Assembly (NCBI GenBank): GCA_025839675.1
Contig: CP104013.1
Location: 3,600,001-3,632,000, forward strand
DNA length: 32,000 nucleotides
Source: Candidatus Lokiarchaeum ossiferum
GTDB lineage: Archaea; Asgardarchaeota; Lokiarchaeia; Sigyniarchaeales; Promethearchaeaceae
Direction: 5' to 3'
Part shown: positions 2,571 to 22,798 of the stretch, piece after piece
Layout of the letters: every line of letters starts with the position of its first letter
Position numbering within the stretch: the first letter of the stretch is position 1
Program-made: the position numbers and the translations under genes
The notes under the pieces: model-generated
Database searches by the model: none
What the model saw: the letters and a program-made list of their open reading frames with translations, nothing else
Told to the model about the DNA's origin: nothing

Positions 2571-3608
2571 TTAGTATCCATTGGTGATATCAACTACGTT
2601 TTTATAATTAGAACCACCAGAAGCTAAAATTTTTATATTTTCAATAATGTCAGACCAACGTTCTAGATCATCAAAAGGTGAGTCAGCCCGATGGGGTGAA
2701 ATTAAAACATTTGATAATTCATGGAATGGATATGTATATGGATATTTTTTACCTTTTTCATTCGGTTCTGGTCGATATCGATACCACACATCAAGAGCTG
2801 CTCGTGCAATGGTTCCATTTTGTAAGGATTTAAAGAGATCTTCTTCAACTATAATATCTGCCCTTCCAACATTTACAATAATTCCCTTTTTCCCCAACAA
2901 TTTCAACTCTCTACTTGTGATCATTTGATGAGTGAGTTTTGTTAGGGGTGCTGCAATGATCAGTATGTCGATGGCTTGGAAAAATTCATCACGTTCTTCA
3001 AAATTATAAAATTTAACTTTCTTTTGACTTTTCTTAGCCTTTTCTGTCCATGAACGCTTCAGAATATGTATATTTTCATTGATACCACATAACATATGAT
3101 GCACTTTTTGGTTAATTTGTCCGTATCCAAGTAAGCCTATCTTTCGTGCGGTAAGCTTTATTGAAGGGGCGGGTTCTTCCACTCCTTCTCCTCCTGGAAT
3201 CCAATTTCCTTTAGCCATATCATTGTGATGGTAAACTATATGATTACAAATGGCAAATAGCATTGCAATTGTCTGTTGAGCGATAAGTCCAGATGCCCCA
3301 TGCGCATTACACAGCGTAAATTTAGGTAAATTTTGGATATTCAAGAGTTTTCGTGAAAGATGTTCAACCCCCGTATAAGGACTAATATAAAGTCTTAATT
3401 TCTTCGCTGCCCGTAAAATTTTTTCAGAAGTATCCCAATAAATCAAGACATCCGCTTCCGGAATTAAGGTAAGTAAGTGTTCTTCGGATGTATCATCTGG
3501 AATTATAAATTTAACATGAGAAAAATCTTTAAAATGTGATAGAAGATGTTGTTTTACCCGTTCAAATGGTTTATAAAGAAATAAAACCGTGATTGGATTT
3601 ACTTTCAT
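2571..3608 (-). CDS. D-isomer-specific 2-hydroxyacid dehydrogenase family, NAD(P)-binding
   Basis: Rossmann motif GLLGYGQINQKV, the segment IIVNVGRADIIVEEDL, and the catalytic-His segment LISPHRADSP are typical of this family. Confidence 0.85.
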   Translation of the reverse strand: MKVNPITVLFLYKPFERVKQHLLSHFKDFSHVKFIIPDDTSEEHLLTLIPEADVLIYWDTSEKILRAAKKLRLYISPYTGVEHLSRKLLNIQNLPKFTLCNAHGASGLIAQQTIAMLFAICNHIVYHHNDMAKGNWIPGGEGVEEPAPSIKLTARKIGLLGYGQINQKVHHMLCGINENIHILKRSWTEKAKKSQKKVKFYNFEERDEFFQAIDILIIAAPLTKLTHQMITSRELKLLGKKGIIVNVGRADIIVEEDLFKSLQNGTIARAALDVWYRYRPEPNEKGKKYPYTYPFHELSNVLISPHRADSPFDDLERWSDIIENIKILASGGSNYKNVVDITNGY

Positions 3609-3651
3609 TATAATTAGAAACGAAAAATTATTGAAAAATGTTGATAAAAAT

Positions 3652-3677
3652 AATCGATCATAACAAAGAGATCGATT
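3652..3677 (-). terminator. Hairpin (8-bp stem AATCGATC/GATCGATT, 10-nt loop) followed by a T-rich tract on the minus strand, just 3' of the vWA gene
   Basis: The inverted repeat was read directly. On the minus strand it is followed by ATTTTTATCAACATTTTTCAATAATTTTTCG. Archaeal termination usually relies on oligo-T, so the hairpin's role is uncertain. Confidence 0.3.
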
Positions 3678-3698
3678 GATGGGAATGAGAATGCAAGC

Positions 3699-4901
3699 TT
3701 ACTGGAATAATCGAGTCATTTTAGAACCGCATGATTTGCATGTGTGATTGGATAATTTATCAAAGCAATGAGAATGATAGATGGCGTTACAATCTGGATT
3801 CCCACATTTTAAAACTTCATCCTTCTCTTCGAAGATCCCATCACAAACTGGACAGGCAGAATACATGGCTTCTTCTCCAAACGAACTTGCTATCGCTGTT
3901 GACACTGGATATGATTGAGGTGATTTCTTATCTGATTGAGATCCCTTCATTGTTTTCATCATTGATTGGTGCATTCTAACTGCTGTTTGAACAGAAGCGG
4001 GGATTTGTAAAAGATAAAGGCAATGAACACAACGAAAAATGGTTCCATCTCCTTCCTTATCTTGGTTTTTTGCCCACATACTGGCACAAGTTGTGTGCAT
4101 TGGGGTTCCACAGTTAGGACAAAACCGTCCCGAAATGGAAAAGCTTGTTTTTGAATATGGGTCGTTCGGTTGAAAACAAATCGAACAACGTTCATAAGAT
4201 TTGGTTCCTCTAAGTCGCTCTATTAACCCTTTTTGATCTTCGGTTCCTCGATTCATTTCATTTTCATCTAAAAGGGGGGCCGCTATCTTTTTTAATACTT
4301 TCGCAGATACTTTTTCTTTACTTTTCCGTGGGGTTGAGCTAGGAAGCTCCATATTTGATGTCGCTAGTTCGGCCACATAATTTAGAATTATTGCAGCGTT
4401 ATTTGCATAACTATATTTTCCCCCCGTCGTATCTGCCAGTTGTTTTAATATACTGAAGTGTTCTACATCGCCCACTCGTATAGTATCCATTTTAATACCC
4501 AATTGCTGTGAAAGGTTTGCCATTTTAATTGGATCTACCTTTGAATTGGTATATTTTCCATCGGAAAAAATTATAATCTTCGGAGATCTCGCACCATTAG
4601 TTCTGATGTCTTCAATTAGTATTTTTATTGCCATACCCACACCTTCTCCCAAAGCGCTTCGACCATGGCAGGTAAGATCTGCAAAGTAGGATGCGATTTG
4701 GTCATAAGATGCACTATCCGTAAAATCAAATACCTTTTTTGCAGCATCACTTATGACTACAACACTATAGGCTGATGAACTCCCAACTACGCTGTCATGG
4801 GTCATTCTTGACTGAATAAAATGAAGTATGGCGGATTTACAAGCTTCTAACCGATTTGGGCTGTAATCAGTACGGAACATGGATCGGGAGGCATCTAACA
4901 C
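3699..4901 (-). CDS. vWA-domain protein with two C-terminal C4HC3 (PHD / RING-variant-like) zinc-binding modules
   Basis: The vWA part has MIDAS DASRS (DxSxS) at residues 3-7 and the IIIFSDG strand. Zinc module 1 is C239-x2-C-x18-C-x2-C-x4-H-x2-C-x18-C-x2-C294 (nt 4020-4187). Zinc module 2 is C350-x2-C-x12-C-x4-C-x4-H-x2-C-x8-C-x2-C391 (nt 3729-3854). The listed start is GTG, and the true start is uncertain (see findings). Confidence 0.8.
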   Translation of the reverse strand: MLDASRSMFRTDYSPNRLEACKSAILHFIQSRMTHDSVVGSSSAYSVVVISDAAKKVFDFTDSASYDQIASYFADLTCHGRSALGEGVGMAIKILIEDIRTNGARSPKIIIFSDGKYTNSKVDPIKMANLSQQLGIKMDTIRVGDVEHFSILKQLADTTGGKYSYANNAAIILNYVAELATSNMELPSSTPRKSKEKVSAKVLKKIAAPLLDENEMNRGTEDQKGLIERLRGTKSYERCSICFQPNDPYSKTSFSISGRFCPNCGTPMHTTCASMWAKNQDKEGDGTIFRCVHCLYLLQIPASVQTAVRMHQSMMKTMKGSQSDKKSPQSYPVSTAIASSFGEEAMYSACPVCDGIFEEKDEVLKCGNPDCNAIYHSHCFDKLSNHTCKSCGSKMTRLFQ

Positions 4902-4952
4902 AAATACTATTGCTTCGGAGGCGTAATCGGGAATTTTTTCATCAGCTCAAAG

Positions 4953-4970
4953 ATTTATATATAAAAATAT
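4953..4970. promoter_or_regulatory. TATA-like A/T block (ATTTATATATAAAAATAT) in the divergent intergenic region between the vWA and GTPase genes
   Basis: It sits about 50 nt upstream of the vWA GTG on the minus strand and about 100 nt upstream of the GTPase ATG on the plus strand. Identification is by sequence pattern only. Confidence 0.25.
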
Positions 4971-5072
4971 GTTTTTCTTTCTTAAAGATTTACTCTTGCA
5001 ATAAAAAATGATCATTTTTTGGAAATTTACATAATTTTTTTTTTAATGTCGAATTAATAGAACTGATCATAA

Positions 5073-6275
5073 ATGTCTGAACAAAACTTTCTTGAAAAAA
5101 TCACGGGATTCTTTAAAGATGGACTTGATTTTTCTTCTATTAAAAAACCTTCTGATGTATTAGATTTACCTTTCGTTGAACTTAAAGCATTTGATGCGCA
5201 ATGGGCCCCTTTCTTTGAAGATTTTGAAGTAAAAACCATAAAAGAACTCGCTCAATTTTCGGAACCAATTATCATTGAAGGCTTAGATCCTGAAGATGTT
5301 AACAAACTCGCCATGATCGCGGAAATGTTATTCTGGAGAATGACACAATTATCCGAATTTGGAGAGCAAAAGAAAAAGGTTGTCTTTTTAGGTCTTGGTA
5401 ATGCTGGAAAAACTTCCGCATTGACTGCGTTATCCGAAAAATACTCTTCTATCAAAGAATTACTTCCGACCCGGGGATTGGCACGTCAAAATACAAAGAT
5501 TCTGGGGTACGATCTAATGGCTTATGATTTCGGTGGACAGAGTGAATATCGAGAACAATATTTCACTAAAGCTGATATGTATTTCTCAGAAGCTGATATG
5601 ATGGTCTTTTGCATTGATATTCAAGATAAAGATCGTTATAATGAATCCCTTGACTATTTAAAACAAATTCTTGAGACATATACCAAATTTGAACTTTTCT
5701 TACCCGTTTTAATTGTATTTACAAAAATGGATCCTGATATAGCCAACGAAGAAAGTATTAATTCAAGCCGAATTAAAATAATCGACGATATTGAGAAGTT
5801 TATTGATCCTAAATTTGATATTGGCTATGCAAATAGTTCTATCTTCGAAAGAAATTCAATCGAAAACTTATTCAGCTTGGCTTTAAAACGGATCTCTACC
5901 TCTGGTGGAGTAATTCAAGAATTGTTGAAAACCTTCGTGAAAGACATTAACGCCCGAGCATGCACTCTTATTTCCTCAACTGGATTAGTATTTGGTTCTT
6001 ATGGGGAAACTCATCAAGAAGAAGAAATGTTGAATAATTCTGCAGCCTACTTGCAAAACTTATATCTTTTCCATTTAACCACGGGTCTTCAAAAAGAAGA
6101 TTTCTATTCATTAACCTATGCGCGTAATAATATGCACTTTATTAGTGAATATATTACAACCTCCGATAGTGGAATGGTGTATTTATGGATTTTAACTCAA
6201 GATATGCGCCAAGAGGTCTTGGGAATTCCAAAATTCCGAGAAGAATTAATGCCTTTGATCGGGCTCTTCTTGTAA
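5073..6275 (+). CDS. Arf/Sar/Arl-like small GTPase with ~100-aa N-terminal extension and C-terminal roadblock/LC7/MglB-like domain
   Basis: G1 is GLGNAGKTS (nt ~5391-5417). G2/G3 follow the Arf pattern LLPTRGLARQNTKILGYDLMAYDFGGQSEYREQYF (PTxG...DxGGQ). G4 is VFTKMD (NKxD variant). The C-terminal 120 aa have residue patterns consistent with the roadblock order alpha-beta-beta-alpha-beta-beta (VIQELLKTFVKDI / ACTLISSTGLVFGSYG / NNSAAYLQNLYLF / MHFISEYI..MVYLWILTQD). Confidence 0.85.
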   Translation: MSEQNFLEKITGFFKDGLDFSSIKKPSDVLDLPFVELKAFDAQWAPFFEDFEVKTIKELAQFSEPIIIEGLDPEDVNKLAMIAEMLFWRMTQLSEFGEQKKKVVFLGLGNAGKTSALTALSEKYSSIKELLPTRGLARQNTKILGYDLMAYDFGGQSEYREQYFTKADMYFSEADMMVFCIDIQDKDRYNESLDYLKQILETYTKFELFLPVLIVFTKMDPDIANEESINSSRIKIIDDIEKFIDPKFDIGYANSSIFERNSIENLFSLALKRISTSGGVIQELLKTFVKDINARACTLISSTGLVFGSYGETHQEEEMLNNSAAYLQNLYLFHLTTGLQKEDFYSLTYARNNMHFISEYITTSDSGMVYLWILTQDMRQEVLGIPKFREELMPLIGLFL

Positions 6276-6743: not shown

Positions 6744-9164
6744 TTGACCTTAGCAAAAACGAATTTTCATTTACCTCAACATAATCAACGCTGCACAATT
6801 TCAAAATTGACTAATAAAATCGAAAATACTGAATCTGCTGCTGAAAACTTGATTGATATTATCGAAGATATATCCAAAAGTGTTGTTAATCAAATGGGTG
6901 CCATAGAAAAGGTGATCAAAGAAATTGAAAATTATTCCGTGGTCAATAAAGAAGTCAACGCACAGACTGAAAATTCAAAAATAATTGCTAACAATACTAT
7001 GGGTGTGGCAAAAAGCGGTCATGGGGCAACAGATCGCTCCATCAAGGCAATTGAGGCCATTGAAACTTCCGTTGGAAGTGTTAAATCAGAGGTTTTGAGT
7101 TTAAGTAAACAAACTCTGGAAATTTCAAAAATGCTTAAAATTATTAAAGATATTTCTCAAAAAACAAATATTTTATCCCTTAATGCTCAAATTGAGGCTG
7201 CCAGAGCGGGAGATGCTGGACGAGGATTTGCGGTTGTTGCTGATGAAGTGGGAAAACTCGCAAAAAGTAGTGATAATGCTGCAGAGGAAATTAATAATAT
7301 TTTATCAAAAATCGAAACCGGTATCAAAACCACATTGGAAGCCATGAAAGACAGTAATAATAAAGTCAAAGAAGGTGTACAAATTACTAAAGATACTAAT
7401 GCCGTTTTTGATAATATTATACAGTCTGTAGATGAAACTTCTGGAGTTATTAACGAAATCAATCTTTCTCTCCATCGTCAAAGTGATAGTTTGGGCCAAA
7501 TCATGGACTCCACTCAAATTATGGATGGAGAGTCTAAGAAAGTTATGAGTTTATCTGAAGTCGCCCTAATTGATGTTGAGAATACAAAGGCAGCCATTAA
7601 CCAGTTATCTAATGTAGGGGATATTTTGACTACTTTATCTAATCAAGTCGAAAAACTCCAAAACAAATTGAATTCTTCCCAGGAAAATATAATTCTCACC
7701 ACATATATGGCTGGAGAATTACGAACGAGAGATCCTGCAGTATCCACTGAAGCTGCGACCAATCATGTCCTTCAAAACATGCATCTTGGATTACTTACCA
7801 TGGGCAATAATTTAAATGCATTAGCAGGAATTGCCAAATCATGGTATGTAAAAGAAGATAATCTCACTTGGGTTTTTAATTTACGTCGGAATGTCAAATT
7901 CCATAATGGGAGAACAGTTAATGCTAATGATGTGAAATATTCCTTCAATCGTTTATTAAGTCCTCAGTTGAATTCCCCCGCAGCATGGTTTCTATTTCCA
8001 TTAGAAGGGGCTGAAGAATTTTATAATAGAAAAACATCCCTTTTTAAAGGGATTAAAGTAGTCAATACCTATCAAATTGAATTAAAACTGAAAGCACCAT
8101 ACCCCGGATTTATTTTGAATTTAACACAACCATCTACTGCAATCTTAGCTAAAGAGGATATTCCACGAGGCAAATTCACCGGATGTGGAAGTTATTATTT
8201 GTCTTCAGAGACAGAATCCCAATATATATTAGCTGCCTTTAAAGATTTTTATGGAGGTTTGCCATATGTTGATGAAGTTCATATTACTTACCAAGATGAA
8301 GATCTCGAAAAAAATGTTATTCAAGGCAAGTATCATTTCTTGGAGATTAAAGATATGAATCAAGTCAAAAAAATCCGTTCAACTAATTCGTCAATGACAA
8401 TCGAAACCATGGATATAATATCTTCCAATTTTGCTGCCTTTAATTTCAGATCGAATTCTATTTTTGTTCAAGATGTCGAGATACGTGAAGCAATCAACTA
8501 TGCTGTGAATAAAAAACGTATCATATCCGATGTTATGCTTGACTTAGTTGATGAATGTAAAGGTATTTTTCCACCCAGCATGTTAAATGATCGATCTATA
8601 AGTGGGTATCCATTTAATCCACAAAAAGCTAAGATGATCCTTAGGAAAAAAAATTTTAACAAATCTACCAACAAACTCAAAATTCTTATAAGAGAATCAG
8701 ATGTAAATTCAGACACCCAAAATCGAAAGATAATTGAATACATTGAAGAAGATTTAAAAACTGTCGGGATTGAGTGTTCATTAGTACCGGTACCTGCAGC
8801 CCAGTATTATAAACCAGAAAGCATGGCAAAAGCAGATATTGCCATTATTGGGTGGATCGCTGATACAGGAGATATGGATAATTTTTTGGAGCCTATTTTT
8901 AATGTTGCAAATTATACCAATTTCGGGAAATATGACAATCCCAAAGTGTTGGAATTAATGAAAGAAGCTAAGATGATCATCATTCCTGCAAAACGTATCG
9001 AAAAATATAAAGAAATTCAAAAAATTTTGCTCGCAGATGTGCCTTGGCTTCATCTATATCATTCAAAAACCATTGTAGCAAAGAAAAAAACAGGGATTGA
9101 AAATGTTCAATATTCCCCCGTAGGAAAAATCATGTTCGAAAATGTGATGATAACTGAAGAATAA
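6744..9164 (+). CDS. Soluble chemoreceptor-like protein: N-terminal MCP signalling hairpin fused to C-terminal family-5 (Opp/Dpp-type) solute-binding domain
   Basis: The MCP tip motif [33 protein letters not shown] lies at nt ~7174-7270. The SBP_bac_5-type block [42 protein letters not shown] is followed by ~480 aa of binding-protein-like sequence. I saw no hydrophobic TM or signal segment. The listed start is TTG at 6744, and the first in-frame ATG is at 6894, so the start is uncertain. Confidence 0.85.
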
Positions 9165-9166
9165 AG

Positions 9167-11056
9167 TTAGGATTTATGCTCGAATTTATATAACTCTTTG
9201 ATTAAACGTTCCAATTTGGATTCTTTAGCTATATTTTTTTTATTTGAATTTGCTTTTAGATTTTCTTGTGAAAATTTCTCCAATTCTTTCGTTACTTTTA
9301 TAATTTCTTGAATAACACTCAAATTTTCTTGAGTGGGAATCATTATGGGTATTTTTTGTAAATCTTTGATGTAAAATTGTAAGTAATCGCCTCGAACATG
9401 GGAATGGGAAAATAATGCGCGATAATACGTGCTAATAAATGTCGAATTCAAAATTCCAAGAAGATAGTAATATTCATCACAATGCGATTGAAAGAGGGAT
9501 AGAAATGGATATCGCATTTCTTCAGCATCGTTTTTTCTTACTAATAGAATGATAGAATTGTTGGCATAATATTGATCTCGATCTAGCGCTGCTTGGATTT
9601 GAGTTCCAAACAGTTTTATCATTATTTTTGGTTTAGCTTCAAAGATCCACTGATCCCTCAAGGAACCATAATCGCCTTGTGAACGATCGATCAAATCTGA
9701 ATTATAATGAACCCACAATCCATTCCACTTGATTTTAAACTTCTCCACCTTATCTCTTGAAGTTATTAGCTTTTTGAAGAGGTTAGAATCAGAAGATTGC
9801 TTTTTAAAAATCAATTTATCCTTCACATTTCCAGTATGAATCCCCTTTCGTAAAATATAGGGACTTGATTTAGAACCTATGTAAAAATAATTTTCTTTTG
9901 GCAGTTTCATTAAATATTCGATTAGTTTTATATTTGAAGAGTTTAAATCAGTTGATATTATAAAATCATGAGCAAGCAAGAAATATGATTGATCAATGAA
10001 AAAATTCTTAGAAAGAGGGGAGGTTTCATTCGAAATAATTGTTTTAAGGTCCGAAATCGTTTCAGTTTTAGCAATATGTATCTTATGTTGTGAGATTGAC
10101 TCAGAAGTGCATTCTTTTTTTTGTAAAATAATTATTACTGGGTATGTTGCGACATTATGAAAGATAGGGAGCTGGGACACATCAATAATATAATGAATCT
10201 TGGTTTGAGTTAGCAATAATTCCCTAATTTTCATACCATAGGATGATACCATCCATTTGTTGGTCAATATTAACCCTGCAAAACCACTTGGTTTGAGTAA
10301 TGTCACGATTTTCTCTAAGAACACTACGGAAATATCAAATTTTTTGTAAGCGCACTTGTATTTCTTTCTTAAAGATGCCCATGTTTTATCTGGTATTGCC
10401 CTTGATTCAATATAGGGGGGATTTCCCAATATAACATTGAATTGATGAGGTGTGTCGAGTTCTGGGTCGAACAATGCATCAGTTTCCTTCCATACTGCAT
10501 TTGGGATGAGGGAATGTTTTGACAAACTGATTGCGGTACCATCAATATCATAGCCATAATAGTTTTCCACATTAAAATGATATTCTGATGATAATTGTGA
10601 TTCTTGATCTTGAATCCACCATTGTGTCAGAAAACGCCCTGTTCCACATGCAATATCTGCTACTTTAATCGATTCGTCATGATTGGAGTCTTCAGAGTTT
10701 TGCTTCTTAGTTAAAAGCTGAATAATGTAATAAATTATTTCTTCTGGAGTATATACTCGACCTGATTCTCTCAATCGGGGTGTTTTTTCAATAATCCGAA
10801 GTTGAGTACCATCCCATTTTAGATAATGTTGAAAGAAAAAATGATAAATGGCCCCCAAAGGATCTGCTATCTCATCGTAAATTGTCCCATTTTTTATCAG
10901 ATTGATCGTTTCCTGCAAGTTCATCTGCATTAACACATTCCAATAATGTGTTCGGGATGATTCTTGGTCCCACGGCAAGTTTTTTTTTTTTAAAGTGCTT
11001 AATTCAAGCCTTATTTGCTGATACAATTTTTGTTTTAAGTTAGTGGGGGAAAACAT
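9167..11056 (-). CDS. N6-adenine DNA methyltransferase, gamma class (Eco57I/TaqI-like catalytic domain plus TaqI_C-like target-recognition domain); no nuclease domain
   Basis: Motif X is GRVYTPEEIIYYII, motif I is VADIACGTGRFL and motif IV is ILGNPPYIE, in the order X-I-IV. The C-terminal LLGILNSTFISTYYRALFS...GDYLQFYIKDLQKIPI resembles the TaqI-type TRD. Confidence 0.9.
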   Translation of the reverse strand: MFSPTNLKQKLYQQIRLELSTLKKKNLPWDQESSRTHYWNVLMQMNLQETINLIKNGTIYDEIADPLGAIYHFFFQHYLKWDGTQLRIIEKTPRLRESGRVYTPEEIIYYIIQLLTKKQNSEDSNHDESIKVADIACGTGRFLTQWWIQDQESQLSSEYHFNVENYYGYDIDGTAISLSKHSLIPNAVWKETDALFDPELDTPHQFNVILGNPPYIESRAIPDKTWASLRKKYKCAYKKFDISVVFLEKIVTLLKPSGFAGLILTNKWMVSSYGMKIRELLLTQTKIHYIIDVSQLPIFHNVATYPVIIILQKKECTSESISQHKIHIAKTETISDLKTIISNETSPLSKNFFIDQSYFLLAHDFIISTDLNSSNIKLIEYLMKLPKENYFYIGSKSSPYILRKGIHTGNVKDKLIFKKQSSDSNLFKKLITSRDKVEKFKIKWNGLWVHYNSDLIDRSQGDYGSLRDQWIFEAKPKIMIKLFGTQIQAALDRDQYYANNSIILLVRKNDAEEMRYPFLSLFQSHCDEYYYLLGILNSTFISTYYRALFSHSHVRGDYLQFYIKDLQKIPIMIPTQENLSVIQEIIKVTKELEKFSQENLKANSNKKNIAKESKLERLIKELYKFEHKS

Positions 11057-15053: not shown

Positions 15054-15977
15054 TTAATATTGGTGAAAATATTCAATGGGAATGGTTTGTAATTCAATAA
15101 GCCCAACAAATATCATCACTACTGTTAACACAATAAAGAAGGCAAAAGGAACGAGAGTTTTCACTTTTGGGTTTTTTATGCGCTTGATGATTGCTTTTGT
15201 TCCAAAATTGATGAAATAAAGAATGGCAATAACCAAGATATACTCAAAACCATACAAAAAGAAAGGCATATTGTTAATTTGATTCGTACTTATGAGTCCA
15301 ATTCTATTTTCTGGGGCCCAAAAAGGCCATTTTTGCAATGTCAATCGAGTTATAAAAAATAAAAGCCAAGTAAACAAAATCGTAGGGGTTATTTTTTTTA
15401 TATCAATTTCTTCTCCTTTTTTACAAGCAGTATAGAAAATATAAACTCCCATGAATGCCCCGCATATATGCGTTAAATCATACATAATCTGAATGATAAA
15501 CGAATGATATCGGAAAATATCCAGCGTAAAAATATTGCTTGCTTCAATTGGATTAATAGTACTGAACAAGCTCATTACAGGAAATGCCATTGTTCCGATG
15601 GCTCCTTGCTTTAACCAAGAATTTCCGGTTATCAAGGCCAAATAGGCAATCGTGGCTGTCCAATAACAAGTGTAAACCAAGTTATGAAGGTTATTAGTGG
15701 AATCATACTCAGCGTGATCTCCAACAATCTCCCATTGCATGTCACCGAAAACATTGAAATCCCAATGCTGATTTGCTCCTCCATATCCTAACTCAATCCA
15801 TTCATAAAGCCACCCATCGTAAAATAAATAAACTATTAGTATTCCAAGAAATATCGTCATGAAGAAAAATCCTAAGCGACGTTCTTTCAAATTTGGGTTT
15901 AGCTGAAATAATTTTTGTTTTGGAAGCGAATTTGAATCAGGTTCTGCTGTTAGTGTATCCATTTTGTCTAGCTCCAA
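15054..15977 (-). CDS. Polytopic membrane protein (about 7 TM helices), unknown function
   Basis: It has seven hydrophobic segments. The listed start is TTG at 15977, and an ATG lies 5 codons in (15962). No confident family was recognised. Confidence 0.6.
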   Translation of the reverse strand: MELDKMDTLTAEPDSNSLPKQKLFQLNPNLKERRLGFFFMTIFLGILIVYLFYDGWLYEWIELGYGGANQHWDFNVFGDMQWEIVGDHAEYDSTNNLHNLVYTCYWTATIAYLALITGNSWLKQGAIGTMAFPVMSLFSTINPIEASNIFTLDIFRYHSFIIQIMYDLTHICGAFMGVYIFYTACKKGEEIDIKKITPTILFTWLLFFITRLTLQKWPFWAPENRIGLISTNQINNMPFFLYGFEYILVIAILYFINFGTKAIIKRIKNPKVKTLVPFAFFIVLTVVMIFVGLIELQTIPIEYFHQY

Positions 15978-16226
15978 TGATTATTTAATATACTAAATAT
16001 TCGAAACCTCTTATTTATATAAATTGCTATTTGATCAATAAAACGCTTTACCTAATTAGTAAAATTTGTGATATCCCATCAGACAAGGCTTGTATATTCA
16101 AAAGTAAAGAAAAGGAAAGATGCGATTTGATTTAATTAATATCATTCTGAAATTTACCAGAACCCTTACAAATGTCATAAATAAAAGAAAGAAAGGAAAA
16201 AAACACGATTTGTCAATTCAAAATTT

Positions 16227-16356
16227 TTTAGAAAGCTGAATCTCGTGAGCTCAAATCTACACTAATATTGGTTGAATCGACTAAGGAATCGATCTTCTTT
16301 TCAATGTCATCTAATCTTTTTAAAATTTTAATTATTGTTTCTCCTAATGTCGGCAT
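16227..16356 (-). pseudogene. Microprotein gene copy 1, interrupted by a +1 frameshift in an A6 run (T6 at 16316-16321 on the plus strand)
   Basis: As sequenced it reads MPTLGETIIKILKKIR* with a stop at 16306-16308. Removing one A gives the 42-codon MPTLGETIIKILKRLDDIEKKIDSLVDSTNISVDLSSRDSAF*, which aligns over its whole length with copy 2. GGAGAAC lies 8 nt upstream of the ATG. It is absent from the ORF track because it is too short. Confidence 0.5.
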
Positions 16357-16409
16357 GCTGTTTGTTCTCCGTTTATTTTGAGGTATTTCTGGTTATTAAA
16401 AAAAAAGCA

Positions 16410-16529
16410 CTAATCACGTGCCGTTAAATCTACTTTTATTTCAGTCGAAGCAAGTACCTTATCAACTTTCTTTTCAATTTGATCTAATCGATCAAGTATT
16501 TTTACTACGAATTCTCCAATTGAAGGCAT
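16410..16529 (-). CDS. Microprotein gene copy 2 (39 aa): MPSIGEFVVKILDRLDQIEKKVDKVLASTEIKVDLTARD
   Basis: The ORF was translated by hand and is intact. GGAGAAT lies 7 nt upstream of the ATG. It is 23/39 identical to the frame-corrected copy 1, and many of the conserved residues use different synonymous codons (ccg/cct, tta/ctt, aga/cga, tca/tcg, acc/act, cga/cgt). Confidence 0.55.
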   Translation of the reverse strand: MPSIGEFVVKILDRLDQIEKKVDKVLASTEIKVDLTARD

Positions 16530-17186
16530 TTTTGTATTCTCCAGATATTTTCTTAATGCAATATTCTCATTTTTTTTATGAAATTTTGAGAATTATTAAG
16601 AATTCACCTTTGTTTTCTGAGTTAAATATCTAATTTTGAAAAATAAATTGGAAAAATTTTCAAGAAAAGTTCTGATTTTTTTGCTTTAAGTGTCAGTAAA
16701 CAAATTGGAATCATTTAAAACGACACAAAATTTATTCTCTAAAGTAGGGTTAATAACACGTTTTTTTGTCCAGAATTAGGTTAGAGAGATTATATCATGG
16801 ACATTTCAACTGTTAATAAATAAGAGAAAAAGAGAAGTGTTTTATAACTTCTTTTCGTGTATTTGATAATAGGTTTTTCAACTAAAGGATGATTGCCGCA
16901 TTCATTTGATTTTGTTGCAGGTAAAACGTATTTTGTGTCGCAAAAACCATCGACAATTTGAGCATTAGGATAAAAAAGAAGGTCTTTTCTAATAATAAAT
17001 TAAAATTAAGAGAATACAAGTTGATTTACATACGATTCTGGTTACAAATGCAAACCGAATTATGCGCATATAGCAAATATTTACAGAAATGTGTTTTAAC
17101 GACCTTAGTAAGTAACTACTTAGGTTTTTTAGACCATAATAGCTTCACAACCTAATATAGTATAATAAATTCGAAGTATAAAAAAA

Positions 17187-19244
17187 ATGAAAACCTTCAT
17201 AGAGATAAAACAAAATTTTTTGGAATTAATCACCAATCAAAATTCAGATCAAACAGTTCAACTCGAGGATCTCCAAGCCCAATTGCTTTCAATTCCGATT
17301 GACTCCTTCAATTACGTTCAATTCTGCGATTTAATAAAAAATTTGTGGAATTATGATTATTATGAATTAGTTTTAAAGTTTTCCCAAAGAATGGAATCCT
17401 TTTTTGAATCAAAAGAAGAAGATAAGTTGCATTCCAACCAAATTGAAAATTATCTCTATGAAGCTAGTGCTTTAGCTTGTTTATCTCAGATGGATTTAGC
17501 CCGTTCTATTTTTTCAAATTTATTGCGTGATGATTCACTTAGTGAGGATCATCGAGGAATCTGTTATTCAAATTTAGGGATAATTACTTTGATTGAAGGA
17601 AATACTGAAGAATCATTAGATTTTTTTCAAAAAAGTTGTGATTGCTTTGAAAAATCTCAAAATAAAAAAAACTATGCAATAGGCTCAAATTATTTGGGGG
17701 TTCATTTTTCCACAATTGGAAAATTGGACAATGCCATGCAGATGTATAAGAAAGGTTTGGAAATAAAAACGGCTGAGCACTATTTCATCTTACTTCCTCC
17801 AACTTATAATAATTTGGGTGAAATTTATTACAATTGGGGCGAGTTCGATCAAGCATCTCAGTATTATGAATTAGGTCTCAAATTCTCTGAAGATAACTCG
17901 AAAAACCCAGAAAAAATTTTTAAGATATTGGAAGATTGCCCGTGGTTTTTAACTCGATGGGGGGCAGCACCTGTAAGTTTTATTAGTGCGTTACAGCACG
18001 ATTCTTCCTTCTTTTTAAATAATCTCGCTCTTGTTTATCGATCAATGGGTGAAAATCAGAAATCCCTCGATTTCTTTAAAATGTCTTTGGAAACTGAAGA
18101 AAATTTTAGTAAAGATCATAATATCGCTGGAATTCTTTTTGAAATCATATATTTATTAACTGAATACCCCGATTTAGAAGATATATCAATCTATACAAAG
18201 AAATTTGAAGACTTGTATTTAAAAGTAGGACAAAAATCTTCCTTAATTCGCCAATATTTTATTTTAATGAAAGGTGTTCTTCATAGAAATAAAACGGACA
18301 TCCGAAGTATCGGAAAAGCAATGGATATATTTGAAATGTTGGTTAATGAAAATCTTCACAATGCAGACTTAATTAAATATTCACATTTATTTTTATTAGA
18401 ATCCTATTTAAAGGAACTGGAGTTGTTTGAAAATCTTGATACTTTAGCCAACGCGATTAAAATCAGCGAAAAACTCGAAATTGTTTCTAAAGATCTTTCA
18501 AATCCCGGATTATTCATCCAAATTTTGATAATTCAGAGTAAATTTGCCCAAATTCAATCCAACTTTAAATTAGCTAAAGAGAAGATTAGAATGGCTTTGG
18601 ATATTGCAGAGAAAAAGGATATGTACCGGTTGGCTGCAAATATTTATAAAGAATTGCAAAACCTCTCTAAAATTCAAAAAGTCTGGAAAGATATCGGTCA
18701 TATTAAATCTTCAATGGCAGAACGGATTAAGATGATTAAAATCAGTCCCTTAATATCCGCTATTAGTAAAAATCAATCTGAAGATATTGCTTCCATACCT
18801 GAATTTGCGTTAGAAAATATTAAGGTCGCCTTTTTTATGATGGCTGATATCGGTCCTGAGTTAATGTCCTATGAATCGATGCCTTTTATCGAAAATGAAT
18901 CAATTGTTCTCGAAAAAATCGCAATGTATTATTCGGTTATGTTAGGCCAAGGAAATTCTACAAATCAAGGACTTTATGGACCATTACCAATCCCAAATTC
19001 ACCGAATCATGTTTCCATAGTGTACACTTTTTATCTACCGAATAAAAATGCTCAAGATCCCCGTCTACAAGCAAATACTTATGGCATCATAAGTTTTCTC
19101 ATGCCTGAGCCCTTTGCAAAATTTTTTGCTGATAGAGAAAAGATTAATGAAAAAATAACCCATGAAATCAGCCAAATCAAAGATATTTCCGAAATCACTC
19201 GAACCACCATTTCCAACATCAAACTTGCATTAGTTCAGTTGTAA
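17187..19244 (+). CDS. TPR-repeat protein with C-terminal longin-like alpha/beta module
   Basis: TPR units are CYSNLGIITLIEGNTEESLDFFQKSCDCFEK, GSNYLGVHFSTIGKLDNAMQMYKKGLEI, YNNLGEIYYNWGEFDQASQYYELGLKF and LNNLALVYRSMGENQKSLDFFKMSLE. The last ~130 aa (IKVAFFMMADIGPELMSY...IAMYYSVMLGQG...HVSIVYTFYLPN...TYGIISFLMPE...INEKITHEISQI) have a beta-beta-alpha-beta-beta-beta-alpha residue pattern. Confidence 0.8.
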   Translation: MKTFIEIKQNFLELITNQNSDQTVQLEDLQAQLLSIPIDSFNYVQFCDLIKNLWNYDYYELVLKFSQRMESFFESKEEDKLHSNQIENYLYEASALACLSQMDLARSIFSNLLRDDSLSEDHRGICYSNLGIITLIEGNTEESLDFFQKSCDCFEKSQNKKNYAIGSNYLGVHFSTIGKLDNAMQMYKKGLEIKTAEHYFILLPPTYNNLGEIYYNWGEFDQASQYYELGLKFSEDNSKNPEKIFKILEDCPWFLTRWGAAPVSFISALQHDSSFFLNNLALVYRSMGENQKSLDFFKMSLETEENFSKDHNIAGILFEIIYLLTEYPDLEDISIYTKKFEDLYLKVGQKSSLIRQYFILMKGVLHRNKTDIRSIGKAMDIFEMLVNENLHNADLIKYSHLFLLESYLKELELFENLDTLANAIKISEKLEIVSKDLSNPGLFIQILIIQSKFAQIQSNFKLAKEKIRMALDIAEKKDMYRLAANIYKELQNLSKIQKVWKDIGHIKSSMAERIKMIKISPLISAISKNQSEDIASIPEFALENIKVAFFMMADIGPELMSYESMPFIENESIVLEKIAMYYSVMLGQGNSTNQGLYGPLPIPNSPNHVSIVYTFYLPNKNAQDPRLQANTYGIISFLMPEPFAKFFADREKINEKITHEISQIKDISEITRTTISNIKLALVQL

Positions 19245-19277: not shown

Positions 19278-21305
19278 TTAGATGCGACGTTTTTTTATAT
19301 ATTTATGAGCAATTTCTCGGGTATGTTTTCCTGCTAGTACATGCAAATTTCGAAGTGCTCGTAAACTAATGGGATTAAAACGATCTAGAGGAAGATATAG
19401 GATGGAAATATCTAATAAACGGGCAATTTGATAGAAGATCGGTTTGGGTTTTTGAGTGGCTACATATGTAAGGATTTTTTTTTGGGCAAAAAGAATGGCG
19501 GCCATCAAGAGACGATCGGCTTTCGCTTTGGCCATAGGGTATTTCTTGACAAATTTTGCCGTCCAAATATTGGGGACCCCTCGAGGGGGAAAAAAAGAGG
19601 TAACTCCCCCTAATTCAATTCGAGAGATACCTGGACCCACTAATTCAATTCCAGGAAACGTACTATAGAAGGCCAAATCACTCTCTTGTTCATGTTCTGC
19701 ATACCACATCATTTCATGGGGATAGCGTTCCATTTCGTCATCATCCCGATCAAAAATAATTACAACTGAATCAACTTCACCACGGATGGGTCGTTCTTCG
19801 CGCACATAAATTTTATGTTCTAATGGCCAATTGCGAATGGTTTCACGAAAATCAATTCCATCCATTAATGTTGAGGTAAATTCATGTATTTTTACATTAT
19901 GATCCTTGAGTAAATTCATCGATCGTTGTCGTACGTGGCGAAAATAATCTTCTTCAAAAATATCTTCTGGAATATGGGAAGCTAAATCCCAGCGATCTTG
20001 ATTCCATGCCGCACGCCAATCGCCTTTTTGGTCTTCCTTGGGTCGAGGTTTGAGTGGTAATCGAATTTTTTGAATTTTAAGCGGGATATTTCTTCTTAAC
20101 TTAAAATATTTTCCATGAAGTAAAATTCCTTTATTAGTAAACGGTAAGGATTCTAATTTTGGATCTTCCACTGCATAAGGATAGTATTTACATTCCTCCC
20201 AGACTATCCAAGCGAAATCATCATTTACAATGCTTTTTGCAGCTAGAACTATTTCAAATAAATGAGGGGTGATTTTCGATTCGATCATCGGAAGATTCCG
20301 TATATATTGGAAAAGGGATTTCAATTTGTGTAAATTAATTTCTTCGTTATATTCCCGATGATATTGGGCTACACTCCGGTGGATGATTGTTTTAATCGCT
20401 TTGAAAAGGTCGAATTTAATCAATTCAAATTCAGAATTAGAAAAATTGGATATTTTGTCCATAGCCTTTTTCTGCCTTTTCCGAAATATCTCGAATTGTA
20501 AGACCGTATTGGGAGTTTCCAACATCACTTTTGGTAAATCATCTTGTAGAATATTGTAGATTTCCGCTTGGATTTCTGGTCCAAAGGCTGTTAGATCAGA
20601 ATTTCCTTTATTATTCTCTAATAAGATTTTAATGGCTTCCCAATGAGCCATTCCTAACACGATTAAGATCTTTTCTTCCGGATATTTTTGAATTAGCTCA
20701 CTCAATCGAGAAGCCATATAAGTATTACGCAAATCATCAATTTCTCGGGGATTTGACATCCAATTCTGAGCTTCTTTTCCGGTGGGGATTTGAGTCGAAC
20801 TTTCTGATTCTAATACATTTTTTTCCGCTGTATCTATATCCTTTTGTGTTTGAATTGTTTTCTCGGTCTCATTAAATTGCTTTTTGGCTAAATCCTCAAA
20901 ATGCAACTCTTTTTGAACTATTTCGTAGAATTCTTTGAGGGAAAGGAAATTTAACGCGTATGAATCAGGTAAGGGAGTCAAAACAGGATCATAATTCTTT
21001 ACAAATAAATCAATGAATTCAATGGGCAATCCATATTCCCTTCCCAACCGGATCGCCTCAATCAGGGAATCGGAAGGTATGATTGGAATATACAATTGCT
21101 GACCAAGTAATTCATCAAAATAAATAATAATGGAAATGCTTGGTAATCGTCGCACTCCTAGTAAAATTTTTTTTTCTAAATTCTCTGGAAATTCGACTGC
21201 GATGCGATCTGGAGGTGAATTATAAAAACAAGTCCGGATCTCATGGACAAAATCGAGATTAGAATGATAAGTTGGGATGATTGTTAAATTTTTATACCGA
21301 ATCAT
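19278..21305 (-). CDS. Large uncharacterised protein with TraB/GumN/ChaN-like (DUF5682-like) N-terminal module; second gene of AAA+ operon
   Basis: LTIIPTYHSNLDFVHEIRTCFYNSPPDRIAVEFPENL ... IPIIPSDSLIEAIRLGREYGLPIEFIDL ... ILIVLGMAHWEAI matches the TraB/ChaN-type pattern (strand-xxH ... PDxhxhE ... hhhhGxxH). The family assignment was made by eye only. GAGGA lies 6-10 nt upstream of the ATG, and the gap to the upstream gene is 20 nt. Confidence 0.6.
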   Translation of the reverse strand: MIRYKNLTIIPTYHSNLDFVHEIRTCFYNSPPDRIAVEFPENLEKKILLGVRRLPSISIIIYFDELLGQQLYIPIIPSDSLIEAIRLGREYGLPIEFIDLFVKNYDPVLTPLPDSYALNFLSLKEFYEIVQKELHFEDLAKKQFNETEKTIQTQKDIDTAEKNVLESESSTQIPTGKEAQNWMSNPREIDDLRNTYMASRLSELIQKYPEEKILIVLGMAHWEAIKILLENNKGNSDLTAFGPEIQAEIYNILQDDLPKVMLETPNTVLQFEIFRKRQKKAMDKISNFSNSEFELIKFDLFKAIKTIIHRSVAQYHREYNEEINLHKLKSLFQYIRNLPMIESKITPHLFEIVLAAKSIVNDDFAWIVWEECKYYPYAVEDPKLESLPFTNKGILLHGKYFKLRRNIPLKIQKIRLPLKPRPKEDQKGDWRAAWNQDRWDLASHIPEDIFEEDYFRHVRQRSMNLLKDHNVKIHEFTSTLMDGIDFRETIRNWPLEHKIYVREERPIRGEVDSVVIIFDRDDDEMERYPHEMMWYAEHEQESDLAFYSTFPGIELVGPGISRIELGGVTSFFPPRGVPNIWTAKFVKKYPMAKAKADRLLMAAILFAQKKILTYVATQKPKPIFYQIARLLDISILYLPLDRFNPISLRALRNLHVLAGKHTREIAHKYIKKRRI

Positions 21306-21325
21306 TCGTTTTCCTCAAATTTTTT

Positions 21326-22663
21326 CTAAGTTTTATTATCGTTCTTTTTTTTTTTTTCCTTTTTTTTTGAAGCTTTAGATGATTGTTTTTGACGTTCTTT
21401 ACGTTCCAAAAATTCGCGGATCATATCATTAGGATCACTTTCCGGGTCAATCTGTTCAAAAGATTCATCAAATGCGGGATTATTATGCGAAGAGTCGGAG
21501 TCATCTTTGTCAATTAAGTGAATAACATCATCTTCATTATCATCTAAAAATTCATCATCTTCTCTCTCCAGCCGATCTGATTCAATATAATAGCCTTCTT
21601 CTTCATCATCTTCATCAAGAAGTTCCTCTTCTAAGAGATCCTCATCAACATAATCATCTTCTGGATCGTCGTGGTCTGTGCTCGAATCCATAAAAACATC
21701 ATTTAATTTATCAAACATTGATTTGAAATGTGAATTCATTCGATGATCTTCTTGATAATTTGGTGATTCTGAAAGAAAATTGAACGCTTCAGGACCTAAA
21801 ATTTGACGGATTGACTGGCGAAAAAGACTCAAATCAAGATCAGGAGTATTTGGGTTTTCCCTTTCTAGAGGTTTTGTCTCTGGTTCTTTGTTCTTTTCTG
21901 TAAATTGTTCAATTTTTAAATAATACCGACAAATATTGATCCCATCTCGGATAGAAAATTCTTTATTATGAAGATGGGCTCGTTGCAAAAAATTAACCGT
22001 GTATAATAATATATCTTTCTTAGCATAAGGGAGATTAAATTTTAGAATTTGAAATTCTTCATTCCGATCGGGAAAATCAATCAAAATTTGGGGTTGAAGT
22101 CGACTGTGAATATATTCAGGAACTTCAAAAGTACTGGAATCATCATTCATCGTCACACAGACTCGAAAATTAGGATGCGCTTTTATCTTAATACCAGCAA
22201 TGATTGATTCGATATAACGTCGTTGATCAAGGAGTGGAGCAAGTGATGCCCAAGATTTTTCAGACATACGATTAGCCTCATCTAAAATACAGACACCTCC
22301 CTTTATCATGGCAGTAACCAATGCGCTCGCGTGATATTTAATGGTATTTTCATTGCTTATAACCGGGGTAACTAGCAAATCTTCTGGACGAGTATCAACT
22401 GTACATTGATAAATGTAAACTGGTAGGTTTATGGATTTGGCAGCACTATAAGCTAAAGTTGTTTTTCCAACTCCGGGTTTGCCTAAAATCTGAGGATTCA
22501 TAGGAATATCTTTTTTTTCATCAACCATCATCCACGCGGCTAGAAGTTGAGTCATATACGTTTCTCCTCCGATCCAATGCATATTGTCGATTTCATCGGG
22601 ATTATTTAAAATTAAATCCACGCCATCAATATTTACTGTTTTTCCCATTCCTTCTTGACTCAT
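21326..22663 (-). CDS. MoxR/AAA_5-type AAA+ ATPase with ~150-aa acidic then lysine-rich C-terminal tail
   Basis: Walker A is ILGKPGVGKTTLAY and Walker B is GGVCILDEANRMSE. The segments FRVCVTMNDDSS and EVPEYIHSRLQPQILIDFPDRNEEFQILKF (sensor/arginine region) are typical of MoxR/CbbQ/NorQ-like ATPases. The tail is DHDDPEDDYVDEDLLEEELLDEDDEEEGYY...DDEFLDDNEDD...KASKKKEKKKKNDNKT. Confidence 0.85.
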   Translation of the reverse strand: MSQEGMGKTVNIDGVDLILNNPDEIDNMHWIGGETYMTQLLAAWMMVDEKKDIPMNPQILGKPGVGKTTLAYSAAKSINLPVYIYQCTVDTRPEDLLVTPVISNENTIKYHASALVTAMIKGGVCILDEANRMSEKSWASLAPLLDQRRYIESIIAGIKIKAHPNFRVCVTMNDDSSTFEVPEYIHSRLQPQILIDFPDRNEEFQILKFNLPYAKKDILLYTVNFLQRAHLHNKEFSIRDGINICRYYLKIEQFTEKNKEPETKPLERENPNTPDLDLSLFRQSIRQILGPEAFNFLSESPNYQEDHRMNSHFKSMFDKLNDVFMDSSTDHDDPEDDYVDEDLLEEELLDEDDEEEGYYIESDRLEREDDEFLDDNEDDVIHLIDKDDSDSSHNNPAFDESFEQIDPESDPNDMIREFLERKERQKQSSKASKKKEKKKKNDNKT

Positions 22664-22798
22664 ATGATATTTTGATCTTAATTAGTAAATCTATTGCTAA
22701 ATGTTTTTAGAAACGGAGATAAAACTGAAAATCTACCATGGGCAAGTTAAACTTAAGATTGAAAATTTTATTTTGAGTGAAAAACAAATTTATATGAT

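Follow-up and report, generated by a model that had tools for sequence, protein, structure and literature searches.

A MoxR-class ATPase and a large partner with a probable Tiki/TraB-type domain form a conserved two-gene module in Asgard archaea and bacteria

Background

What does a MoxR-class AAA+ ATPase do when the gene beside it encodes not the usual adaptor with a vWA (von Willebrand factor A) domain but a large protein of a different make? The question is raised by two genes in the genome of the Asgard archaeon Candidatus Lokiarchaeum ossiferum (GenBank assembly GCA_025839675.1, contig CP104013.1), which lie in a stretch of 32,000 nucleotides (nt), positions 3,600,001 to 3,632,000 of the forward strand, that we refer to as the window and whose own numbering is used throughout. 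Both genes are on the minus strand of the window: gene 1 (21326..22663) encodes a MoxR-class AAA+ ATPase of 445 amino acids, and gene 2 (19278..21305) a large multidomain partner of 675 amino acids. We find that the two genes constitute a conserved module, met with again in hundreds of species of bacteria and archaea, and that the large protein probably begins with a hydrolase domain of the Tiki/TraB type. The pair may be a self-contained two-component machine in which a CbbQ/NorQ-like MoxR ring works with a dedicated Tiki/TraB-type partner that replaces the vWA adaptor, a reading to which we assign a probability of about 0.5.

Few AAA+ proteins are as poorly understood as the MoxR ATPases, and the pair, if this reading is true, would be a widespread exception among them, the vWA cofactor having been replaced by a probable enzyme. 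Because the module is compact, strongly conserved and present in cultivated organisms, it offers a tractable route to a new Tiki/TraB activity in the cytosol; it likewise offers a route to what an unannotated domain does that is very conserved and confidently modelled but lacks a solved analogue, and, indirectly, a lead on the DUF5682/Yeh systems, which are just as uncharacterised. Its components come from known superfamilies, and a MoxR ATPase with an adjoining large partner follows a known logic, these ATPases acting with a dedicated cofactor encoded alongside, generally a vWA protein (PMC3893208). The pair had first been pointed out in an annotation made from the DNA letters alone (hereafter the sequence-only reading), which likened it to the yehLMPQ genes of Escherichia coli and took its function to be undescribed. 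On the latter point we concur: literature searches on DUF5682, yehM/yehL, MoxR together with TraB, and APE2220/PA2707 returned no function and no TraB-like partner, and in the library that was searched neither DUF5682 nor a pairing of MoxR with TraB is named in any paper.

Results and discussion

Conservation and layout of the gene pair

Homologous loci were gathered by a scan seeded with the ATPase alone, with one genome per species (GTDB), and the best 80 of at least 579 confirmed stretches were kept. Of the 80 loci, 72 have the large gene directly downstream of the ATPase gene and in the same orientation (fragmented in two of these); among the other eight, three end at a contig edge and five are without a large gene, so that 72 of the 77 informative loci are paired. 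This adjacency is far beyond chance, and the neighbourhood analysis bears out the two-gene operon that the sequence-only reading had proposed and shows it to be conserved. Paired loci were found in at least six phyla in all, the taxa including Acidobacteriota (Bryobacterales), Chlamydiota (Parachlamydiaceae, Waddliaceae), Synergistia, Vulcanimicrobiota, Desulfobacterota and Thermodesulfobacteriota (Geomonas, Thermosulfurimonas) and Asgard archaea, with cultivated carriers such as Geomonas edaphica and Thermosulfurimonas dismutans.

Searches that started from the large protein returned 69 homologs with a word-indexed method and, with a profile run against 1.84 billion representative proteins, 2377 relatives at E ≤ 1e-3, 556 of them at E ≤ 1e-30; most of the best 150 of the 2377 are full-length. 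The pairwise identities of the ATPase and of the large protein correlate with r = 0.96, a figure that is confounded by shared phylogeny. All-against-all clustering of the neighbouring open reading frames (ORFs) revealed no third family common to several phyla, neighbours being kept within a phylum only. Such is the case in Chlamydiota, where a tilS-like gene stands just upstream of the pair in 10 of 14 loci, followed by surE in one of them (L004).

In the window, a spacer of 20 nt (21306..21325, minus strand) separates the two genes and holds a Shine-Dalgarno-like GAGGA (21312..21316, minus strand) 6 nt ahead of the ATG of the large gene. Both reading frames, the gap and the GAGGA site had been reported from the sequence alone and were recovered at these positions. 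The spacer with its GAGGA fits co-transcription and coupled translation. On independently called contigs elsewhere the two genes overlap by 1-8 nt or stand 3-9 nt apart, which also fits translational coupling, and we conclude that the ATPase and the large gene are a conserved two-gene module, probably translationally coupled. The ATPase gene is preceded by a divergent, AT-rich intergenic region of 135 nt (22664..22798, no strand assigned), which presumably holds its promoter; inspection of this upstream region revealed no Shine-Dalgarno-like site ahead of the ATPase ATG.

The ATPase core and its closest relatives

The ATPase core, residues 1-295 (21779..22663, minus strand), was compared in a 13-sequence cross-phylum alignment and matches Pfam AAA_5 over residues 59-188 with an E-value of 8.4e-20 (71.6 bits, the cut-off being 22). 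The Walker A motif GKPGVGKT (G61-T68) and the Walker B motif ILDEA (D128/E129), which the sequence-only reading had pointed out, are invariant in the alignment, as are N173, R188, R239 and R246. By position only, N173 is a candidate sensor-1 residue, R188 a candidate arginine finger and R239/R246 candidates for sensor-2. The alignment also exposes a conserved N-terminal extension (residues 1-55). Over a core of about 280 residues the window ATPase shares 56-63% identity with bacterial homologs, and between phyla the identity of the ATPase amounts to 59-70%, that of the large protein to 30-44%.

Among solved single-module structures in the PDB, the nearest relative is CbbQ (5c3c), which the single sequence matches at 1.1e-8 and the profile at 1.5e-9, followed by NorQ (2.5e-6, profile); the profile also matches the AAA_5 modules of midasin. 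The NCBIfam model for GvpN gives 21.8 bits where 266.8 are required. The matches to CbbQ, NorQ and midasin modules place the ATPase in the MoxR/midasin clade, where, as far as sequence comparison goes, it is remote from any characterised member.

The CbbQ-CbbO and NorQ-NorD systems, whose ATPases are of the CGN (CbbQ/GvpN/NorQ) subfamily of MoxR, offer the closest parallel to the pair: no solved single-module ATPases are nearer to that of the pair than theirs, and they too join an ATPase of about 270-280 amino acids to one large partner encoded alongside. The relationship is nevertheless remote, with E-values of 1e-9 to 1e-6 against about 1e-130 or lower within the ATPase family of the pair. 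The partners differ as well, CbbO and NorD carrying a vWA domain with a metal ion-dependent adhesion site (MIDAS), whereas the large protein combines a Tiki/TraB-like domain with an unrecognised C-terminal domain and has no vWA domain. As to the vWA cofactor gene expected beside a MoxR ATPase (PMC3893208), homologs of the vWA protein of the window are encoded close to the pair in three Lokiarchaeia-type loci only, and no third gene recurs across phyla.

A Tiki/TraB-type domain at the N-terminus of the large protein

Residues 1-250 of the large protein (20556..21305, minus strand) were examined by profile-profile comparison (hhalign) and by residue conservation, and it is on these that the domain assignment rests, since the window protein itself falls below the Pfam thresholds. 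The family profile aligns with PrgY of pCF10, a bona fide TraB/GumN protein, at 91.7% probability (E 7.8e-7, 185 columns), bringing H14, E38, R193 and H221 into register with, respectively, the His of GTAH, the Glu of CLEW, the Arg of ERDQY and the His of GQAH. A 39-sequence family alignment shows no variation at H14, D99, R193 and H221, and at least 90% of its sequences keep E38; in a 9-sequence alignment across phyla, chlamydial proteins among them, all five residues are invariant. The PrgY alignment and the conserved catalytic positions indicate that the TraB/ChaN-type pattern recognised earlier at this N-terminus was correctly read, and the motifs then cited (x-x-H, AVEFP, EFIDL and GMAH) contain H14, E38, D99 and H221.

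What defines active TIKI enzymes is a His-Glu pair together with another His and a basic residue that is conserved (PMC6254334), and H14, E38, R193 and H221, together with the invariant D99, make up the candidate catalytic set of the large protein. Its spacing (24 residues from H to E, 28 from R to H) is near that of RRSP, in which H3902 and E3930 are 28 residues apart and R4001 and H4030 29 (PMC6254334). The additional Glu of the 2His/2Glu motif of RRSP (E-x-H) is missing, the large protein having P-x-x-H at this place. Judged from these comparisons, the N-terminal domain is probably a Tiki/TraB-type hydrolase domain, with a catalytic set that appears intact. It is interrupted by a variable insert, residues 135-185 (20751..20903, minus strand), which the AlphaFold2 (AF2) model renders in part as a long helix, with very low confidence at residues 165-182.

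The large protein represents a family that lies above the threshold of no Pfam, NCBIfam or PADLOC model, and the window protein matches none of their families at E ≤ 0.01. With lax thresholds, the Pfam matches that rank highest are to families of the Tiki clan, all sub-threshold and all on residues ~150-230: ChaN (E 0.057), DUF5694 (0.062) and TraB_PrgY_gumN (0.13); the last of these models, PF01963, gives the window protein 12.5 bits against a threshold of 26.8, and the best family member an E-value of 5.1e-4. At E ≤ 10, DUF5682 is matched by 20 of 39 family members, TraB (PF01963) by 13, DUF5694 by 10 and ChaN by two.

The likeness to the TIKI/TraB superfamily (PrgY, Tiki1/2, TRABD, EreA/B, RRSP, ChaN) lies in the His, Glu, Arg, His register with PrgY and in the spacings shared with RRSP. 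The partner differs from the superfamily in being soluble and cytosolic, in having about 425 extra residues and in its strict pairing with an AAA+ ATPase. PrgY, TraB and Tiki are membrane proteins; neither the ATPase nor the large protein has a transmembrane-like segment (maximum Kyte-Doolittle value over 19 residues, KD19, 1.38). TRABD, too, is a membrane protein (PMC12329661).

Architecture of the remainder of the large protein

The full-length AF2 model of the large protein (mean predicted local distance difference test score, pLDDT, 84.8; predicted template-modelling score, pTM, 0.59) falls into four parts: the alpha/beta N-terminal domain, a helical domain, a linker and a C-terminal alpha/beta domain. 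The helical middle domain, residues 251-375 (20181..20555, minus strand), is modelled with helices at 254-373, mostly at pLDDT 80-95, and contains the invariant or nearly invariant residues R336, N337 and P347 (39-sequence family alignment). It leads into a basic linker, residues 376-430 (20016..20180, minus strand), which the model renders with low confidence, the pLDDT dropping below 50 at 391-395 and 409-417, yet which is conserved, with a mean pairwise identity of 0.46 and the consensus LRR..P...PLK.RP.E..GEW..W in the same alignment.

The C-terminal alpha/beta domain, residues 431-675 (19281..20015, minus strand), reaches a pLDDT of 91.7 and a pTM of 0.84 when modelled alone (residues 430-675). 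No other part of the large protein is as conserved: its mean pairwise identity is 0.54-0.59, whereas that of the Tiki domain is 0.32-0.41, and among its many invariant polar residues are D448, E452, D482, T489, R491, E537, H538, S542, H655 and R663. Foldseek returned nothing for it at E ≤ 0.001, either in the PDB (best E 0.038, template-modelling (TM) score below 0.2) or in BFVD (best E 0.024); no Pfam family falls on it in any of the 39 members, and the profile of the large-protein family gave chance-level matches only against PDB sequences.

A weak likeness of the C-terminal domain to Pelota/eRF1 was rejected as evidence and is retained as an unsupported lead: the candidates came from two independent libraries (3wxm_H, E 0.038; a giant-virus eRF1, E 0.11), with TM scores below 0.2, and no eRF1-type Pfam family is found among the weak matches of the 39 members. 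Just behind the Pelota/eRF1 chains the Foldseek output contains several Argonaute and integrase (RNase-H-like) chains, without sequence support.

Comparison with YehLMPQ and the distant vWA protein

The sequence-only reading had stated that proteins of this kind occur in E. coli beside an ATPase, a vWA protein and a zinc-finger protein, and this composition is confirmed by RefSeq, which annotates YehL as a putative AAA+ MoxR ATPase, YehM as uncharacterised, YehP as a vWA protein and YehQ as a SWIM zinc-finger protein; YehM matches DUF5682 (PF18934) at 2.4e-98 (330.8 bits, model positions 1-695 of 727). The pair could then be an archaeal four-component system of the YehLMPQ type, in which the vWA/zinc-finger protein encoded 14 kb away in the window (3699..4901, minus strand) would act in trans. 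The general use of vWA cofactors by MoxR ATPases (PMC3893208) speaks for such an arrangement, and so do the composition of yehLMPQ, the homology of the N-terminal domains of the large protein and YehM, the vWA/zinc-finger gene 14 kb away and a homolog of it 6.6 kb from the pair in Harpocratesius. Each system has an AAA_5/MoxR gene directly followed by one for a large protein whose first ~200 residues are Tiki/TraB-like. Both systems are uncharacterised.

The homology is, however, confined to one domain. BLASTP shows no similarity between the ATPase and YehL, nor between the large protein and YehM, and the family profile aligns with YehM over residues 9-231 only (90% probability, E 1.6e-6), with the catalytic residues in register. 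Matches to DUF5682 at E ≤ 0.01 were obtained for 10 of the 39 family members, all below the gathering threshold (at most 24.8 bits against 26) and touching only model positions 1-215 of 727; the window protein has none at that level. What the large protein has in common with YehM is its N-terminal domain, which is homologous in the two; the other ~425 residues differ, and the equation of the pair with yehLM is not upheld. In YehLMPQ, moreover, vWA and SWIM genes are present, whereas gene calls around the pair show neither adjoining it across phyla, and the rest of the two large proteins (~450 residues) is unrelated.

The vWA protein itself (VWA_2, 1.9e-12) shows weak vWA matches of the Ssl1/Tfb4 kind (TFIIH p44/p34-type), and its C-terminal zinc finger is RING/PHD-like, not SWIM. 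Its gene is flanked by those of a 2-hydroxyacid dehydrogenase (2571..3608) and an Arf/RagA-like GTPase (5073..6275). Apart from the window, just two loci, both Lokiarchaeia-type, have a homolog of this vWA-RING protein close to the pair: L013 and, 6.6 kb from the pair, L007 of Harpocratesius. In the latter, positions 15215-18001 hold the same GTPase, vWA-RING and dehydrogenase block as 2571..6275 of the window, so that the proximity looks like local synteny of related genomes and not linkage to the pair. No vWA-RING homolog lies within ~6 kb of the pair in ~75 non-Lokiarchaeial loci, nor does any other family recur there across phyla. Nothing supports the vWA-RING protein as the missing partner in trans proposed earlier, and on these comparative grounds we reject it as improbable; a YehLMPQ-type system as a whole appears very improbable. 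The vWA-RING protein looks eukaryote-like; no finding links the pair to eukaryote-like biology.

Genomic context and a possible role in defence

An ATPase combined with a protease is a common defence architecture, and the pair could accordingly be pictured as a conflict system akin to IetAS, with the ATPase as sensor and a protease effector directed at invading DNA or phage. PADLOC gives the ATPase marginal matches to TRIP13 and to IetA, the latter weak (1.3e-4) and limited to the Walker A region (residues 37-83), and the patchy phyletic distribution of the pair would suit such a role, as would the TIR and bAvd genes near it in one locus (L002). The large protein, on the other hand, matches no PADLOC model, and the 59-70% identity of the ATPase between phyla is unlike that of fast-evolving defence genes. 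The chlamydial neighbourhood is conserved in a housekeeping-like manner; a phage search returned no match to the pair, and a plasmid search a single one, to a Neochlamydia replicon of 231 kb that is non-mobilizable. The ATPase evolves slowly, the synteny in Chlamydiota is of a housekeeping type, and the pair is absent from phages and mobilizable plasmids; these three points favour a conserved role in the cell over one in defence, which we regard as highly unlikely.

L002 (1593-3244) belongs to an uncultured genome and is the only defence-like context seen around the pair; the pair lies there ~4 kb from a gene for a TIR + FGE-sulfatase protein and from a bAvd gene, an accessory of diversity-generating retroelements.

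A two-component machine and its alternatives

The reading that we favour, at a probability of about 0.5, is that of a MoxR ring whose dedicated partner is the large protein. The ATPase would presumably form a hexameric ring. The coupled operon would yield both proteins in fixed proportion and so provide for a ring-plus-partner complex, in which the C-terminal domain and the basic linker of the large protein might dock onto the ring or inside it, or else bind a target. ATP hydrolysis could then remodel a cytosolic target, or the partner itself, upon which the Tiki domain would cleave a peptide or ester bond. The large partner would thereby occupy the place that the vWA adaptor has in other MoxR systems. 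HslUV, ClpXP and IetAS, in which an ATPase gene likewise adjoins that of a hydrolase or peptidase, resemble the pair by analogy only: the ATPase of the pair is of the MoxR/helix-2-insert clade and not of the HslU or ClpX type, the peptidase fold differs from that of HslUV and ClpXP, and nothing points to a self-compartmentalised protease chamber of their kind.

A number of observations weigh against this machine. To our knowledge, MoxR ATPases are remodellers and maturases and not proteolytic unfoldases. The window protein scores below every threshold of the Pfam Tiki clan (best 13.8-14.1 bits), a Foldseek search with the full large-protein model returned no solved Tiki-fold structure, and the domain that is most conserved, the C-terminal one, is without recognised fold, family or explained role. 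Pairing, too, has exceptions, the large gene being absent from five loci: L015, L027 and L075 (both Sumerlaeota), L084 (with a run of N) and L086. The ATPases of L027 (5938-6945), L075 (5848-6894), L015 (1486-2424) and L086 (5935-6816) are close homologs, at 52-65% identity, and no large-protein gene lies within ~6 kb of any of these four. Around the five loci we found no recurrent substitute and no vWA gene, the neighbours being unrelated to one another and including a zinc-ribbon protein, MMPL, GreA or a GreA fusion, M16 and M1 peptidases and SpoIIE; the partner of these ATPases may be encoded elsewhere, or they may work in a different mode. Lastly, the C1/C2 domain of PMT, which lacks the catalytic motif, has no endopeptidase activity (PMC6254334), and ChaN, a member of the Tiki superfamily, is haem-binding according to its Pfam annotation.

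In one alternative, the Tiki-like domain is a non-catalytic scaffold that binds a ligand or cofactor, as in ChaN, and the ATPase loads or unloads this ligand. It is in keeping with ChaN being the best, if sub-threshold, Pfam match of the window protein and with the existence of superfamily members that have no catalytic activity (PMC6254334). The His/Glu motif that is missing from PMT C1/C2 is, however, present here, H14, R193 and H221 being invariant and E38 nearly so in Asgard archaea and bacteria alike, and a scaffold is in our view quite improbable.

The large protein could also be the client of the ATPase: the ring would activate the Tiki-type enzyme, for example by metal insertion or conformational unlocking, in the way that NorQ/NorD and CbbQ/CbbO deal with their targets, and the enzyme would then work alone. 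Such maturation agrees with CbbQ and NorQ being the closest solved relatives of the ATPase, with the strict adjacency of the two genes, and with the role of metal in the superfamily, Tiki being a metal-dependent protease and Ere enzymes requiring a metal structurally (PMC6254334). Known MoxR maturases, however, reach their client through a separate vWA adaptor; none is present here, where the client would be the sole partner. The highest conservation, moreover, is found in the C-terminal and not in the hydrolase domain, and suggests that the C-terminal domain forms a permanent interface or has its own function. Maturation is in our view unlikely, if compatible with the same data as the machine.

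If the two-component machine were confirmed in all its parts, it might represent a new class of ATP-dependent hydrolase or protease, composed of a MoxR ring joined directly, with no vWA adaptor between, to a Tiki/TraB subunit with a highly conserved domain of new fold, having a conserved target in the cytosol that bacteria and Asgard archaea would have in common, and further regulated through the ATPase tail in one Asgard lineage. This wider proposal is possible and is put forward tentatively.

The acidic tail of the ATPase

In the window, the ATPase core is followed by an acidic tail with a K-rich C-terminus (residues 296-445; 21329..21778, minus strand). Residues 296-420 contain 40% D+E and have a net charge of -43, and the Lys-rich end comes after them; the tail is probably disordered. 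It is more than low-complexity sequence, for three short motifs are kept within it, F..FDKLN, DDVIHI.EK and DPN..IREFL, of which the window tail has F..FDKLN at ~317-325, DDVIHLIDK at ~379-387 and DPNDMIREFL at 411-420, with an invariant F418. Tails of 145-259 residues were found only in the window and four other Asgard loci; in the remaining Asgard loci the tail measures at most 30 residues, and in 60 bacterial loci at most 11. The extreme acidic tail to which the sequence-only reading had drawn attention is thus real, but only some of the Asgard loci have it, and it does not characterise archaea in general. It was most likely gained in one lineage within Asgard archaea as a regulatory or docking appendage, and poses a side question on lineage-specific regulation.

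Other genes in the window

Downstream of the pair, the gene at 17187..19244 (plus strand) is convergent with the large gene, 33 nt separating the two stop codons; its product of 685 amino acids has N-terminal tetratricopeptide (TPR) repeats (TPR_12, 7e-18; MalT-like TPR region) and a C-terminal part of ~300 amino acids without a Pfam match. The protein of 806 amino acids encoded at 6744..9164 (plus strand) carries a methyl-accepting chemotaxis signalling domain (MCPsignal, 104-261) N-terminal to a solute-binding domain of family 5 (SBP_bac_5, 362-724), an unusual order for a chemoreceptor. The gene at 9167..11056 (minus strand) encodes an Eco57I-like protein in which methylase and specificity parts are fused (N6_Mtase, Eco57I, TaqI_C). 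In Harpocratesius (L007, 13297-15213) a gene of this Eco57I-like type separates the pair from the vWA block, which shows that synteny between the two genomes is broad.

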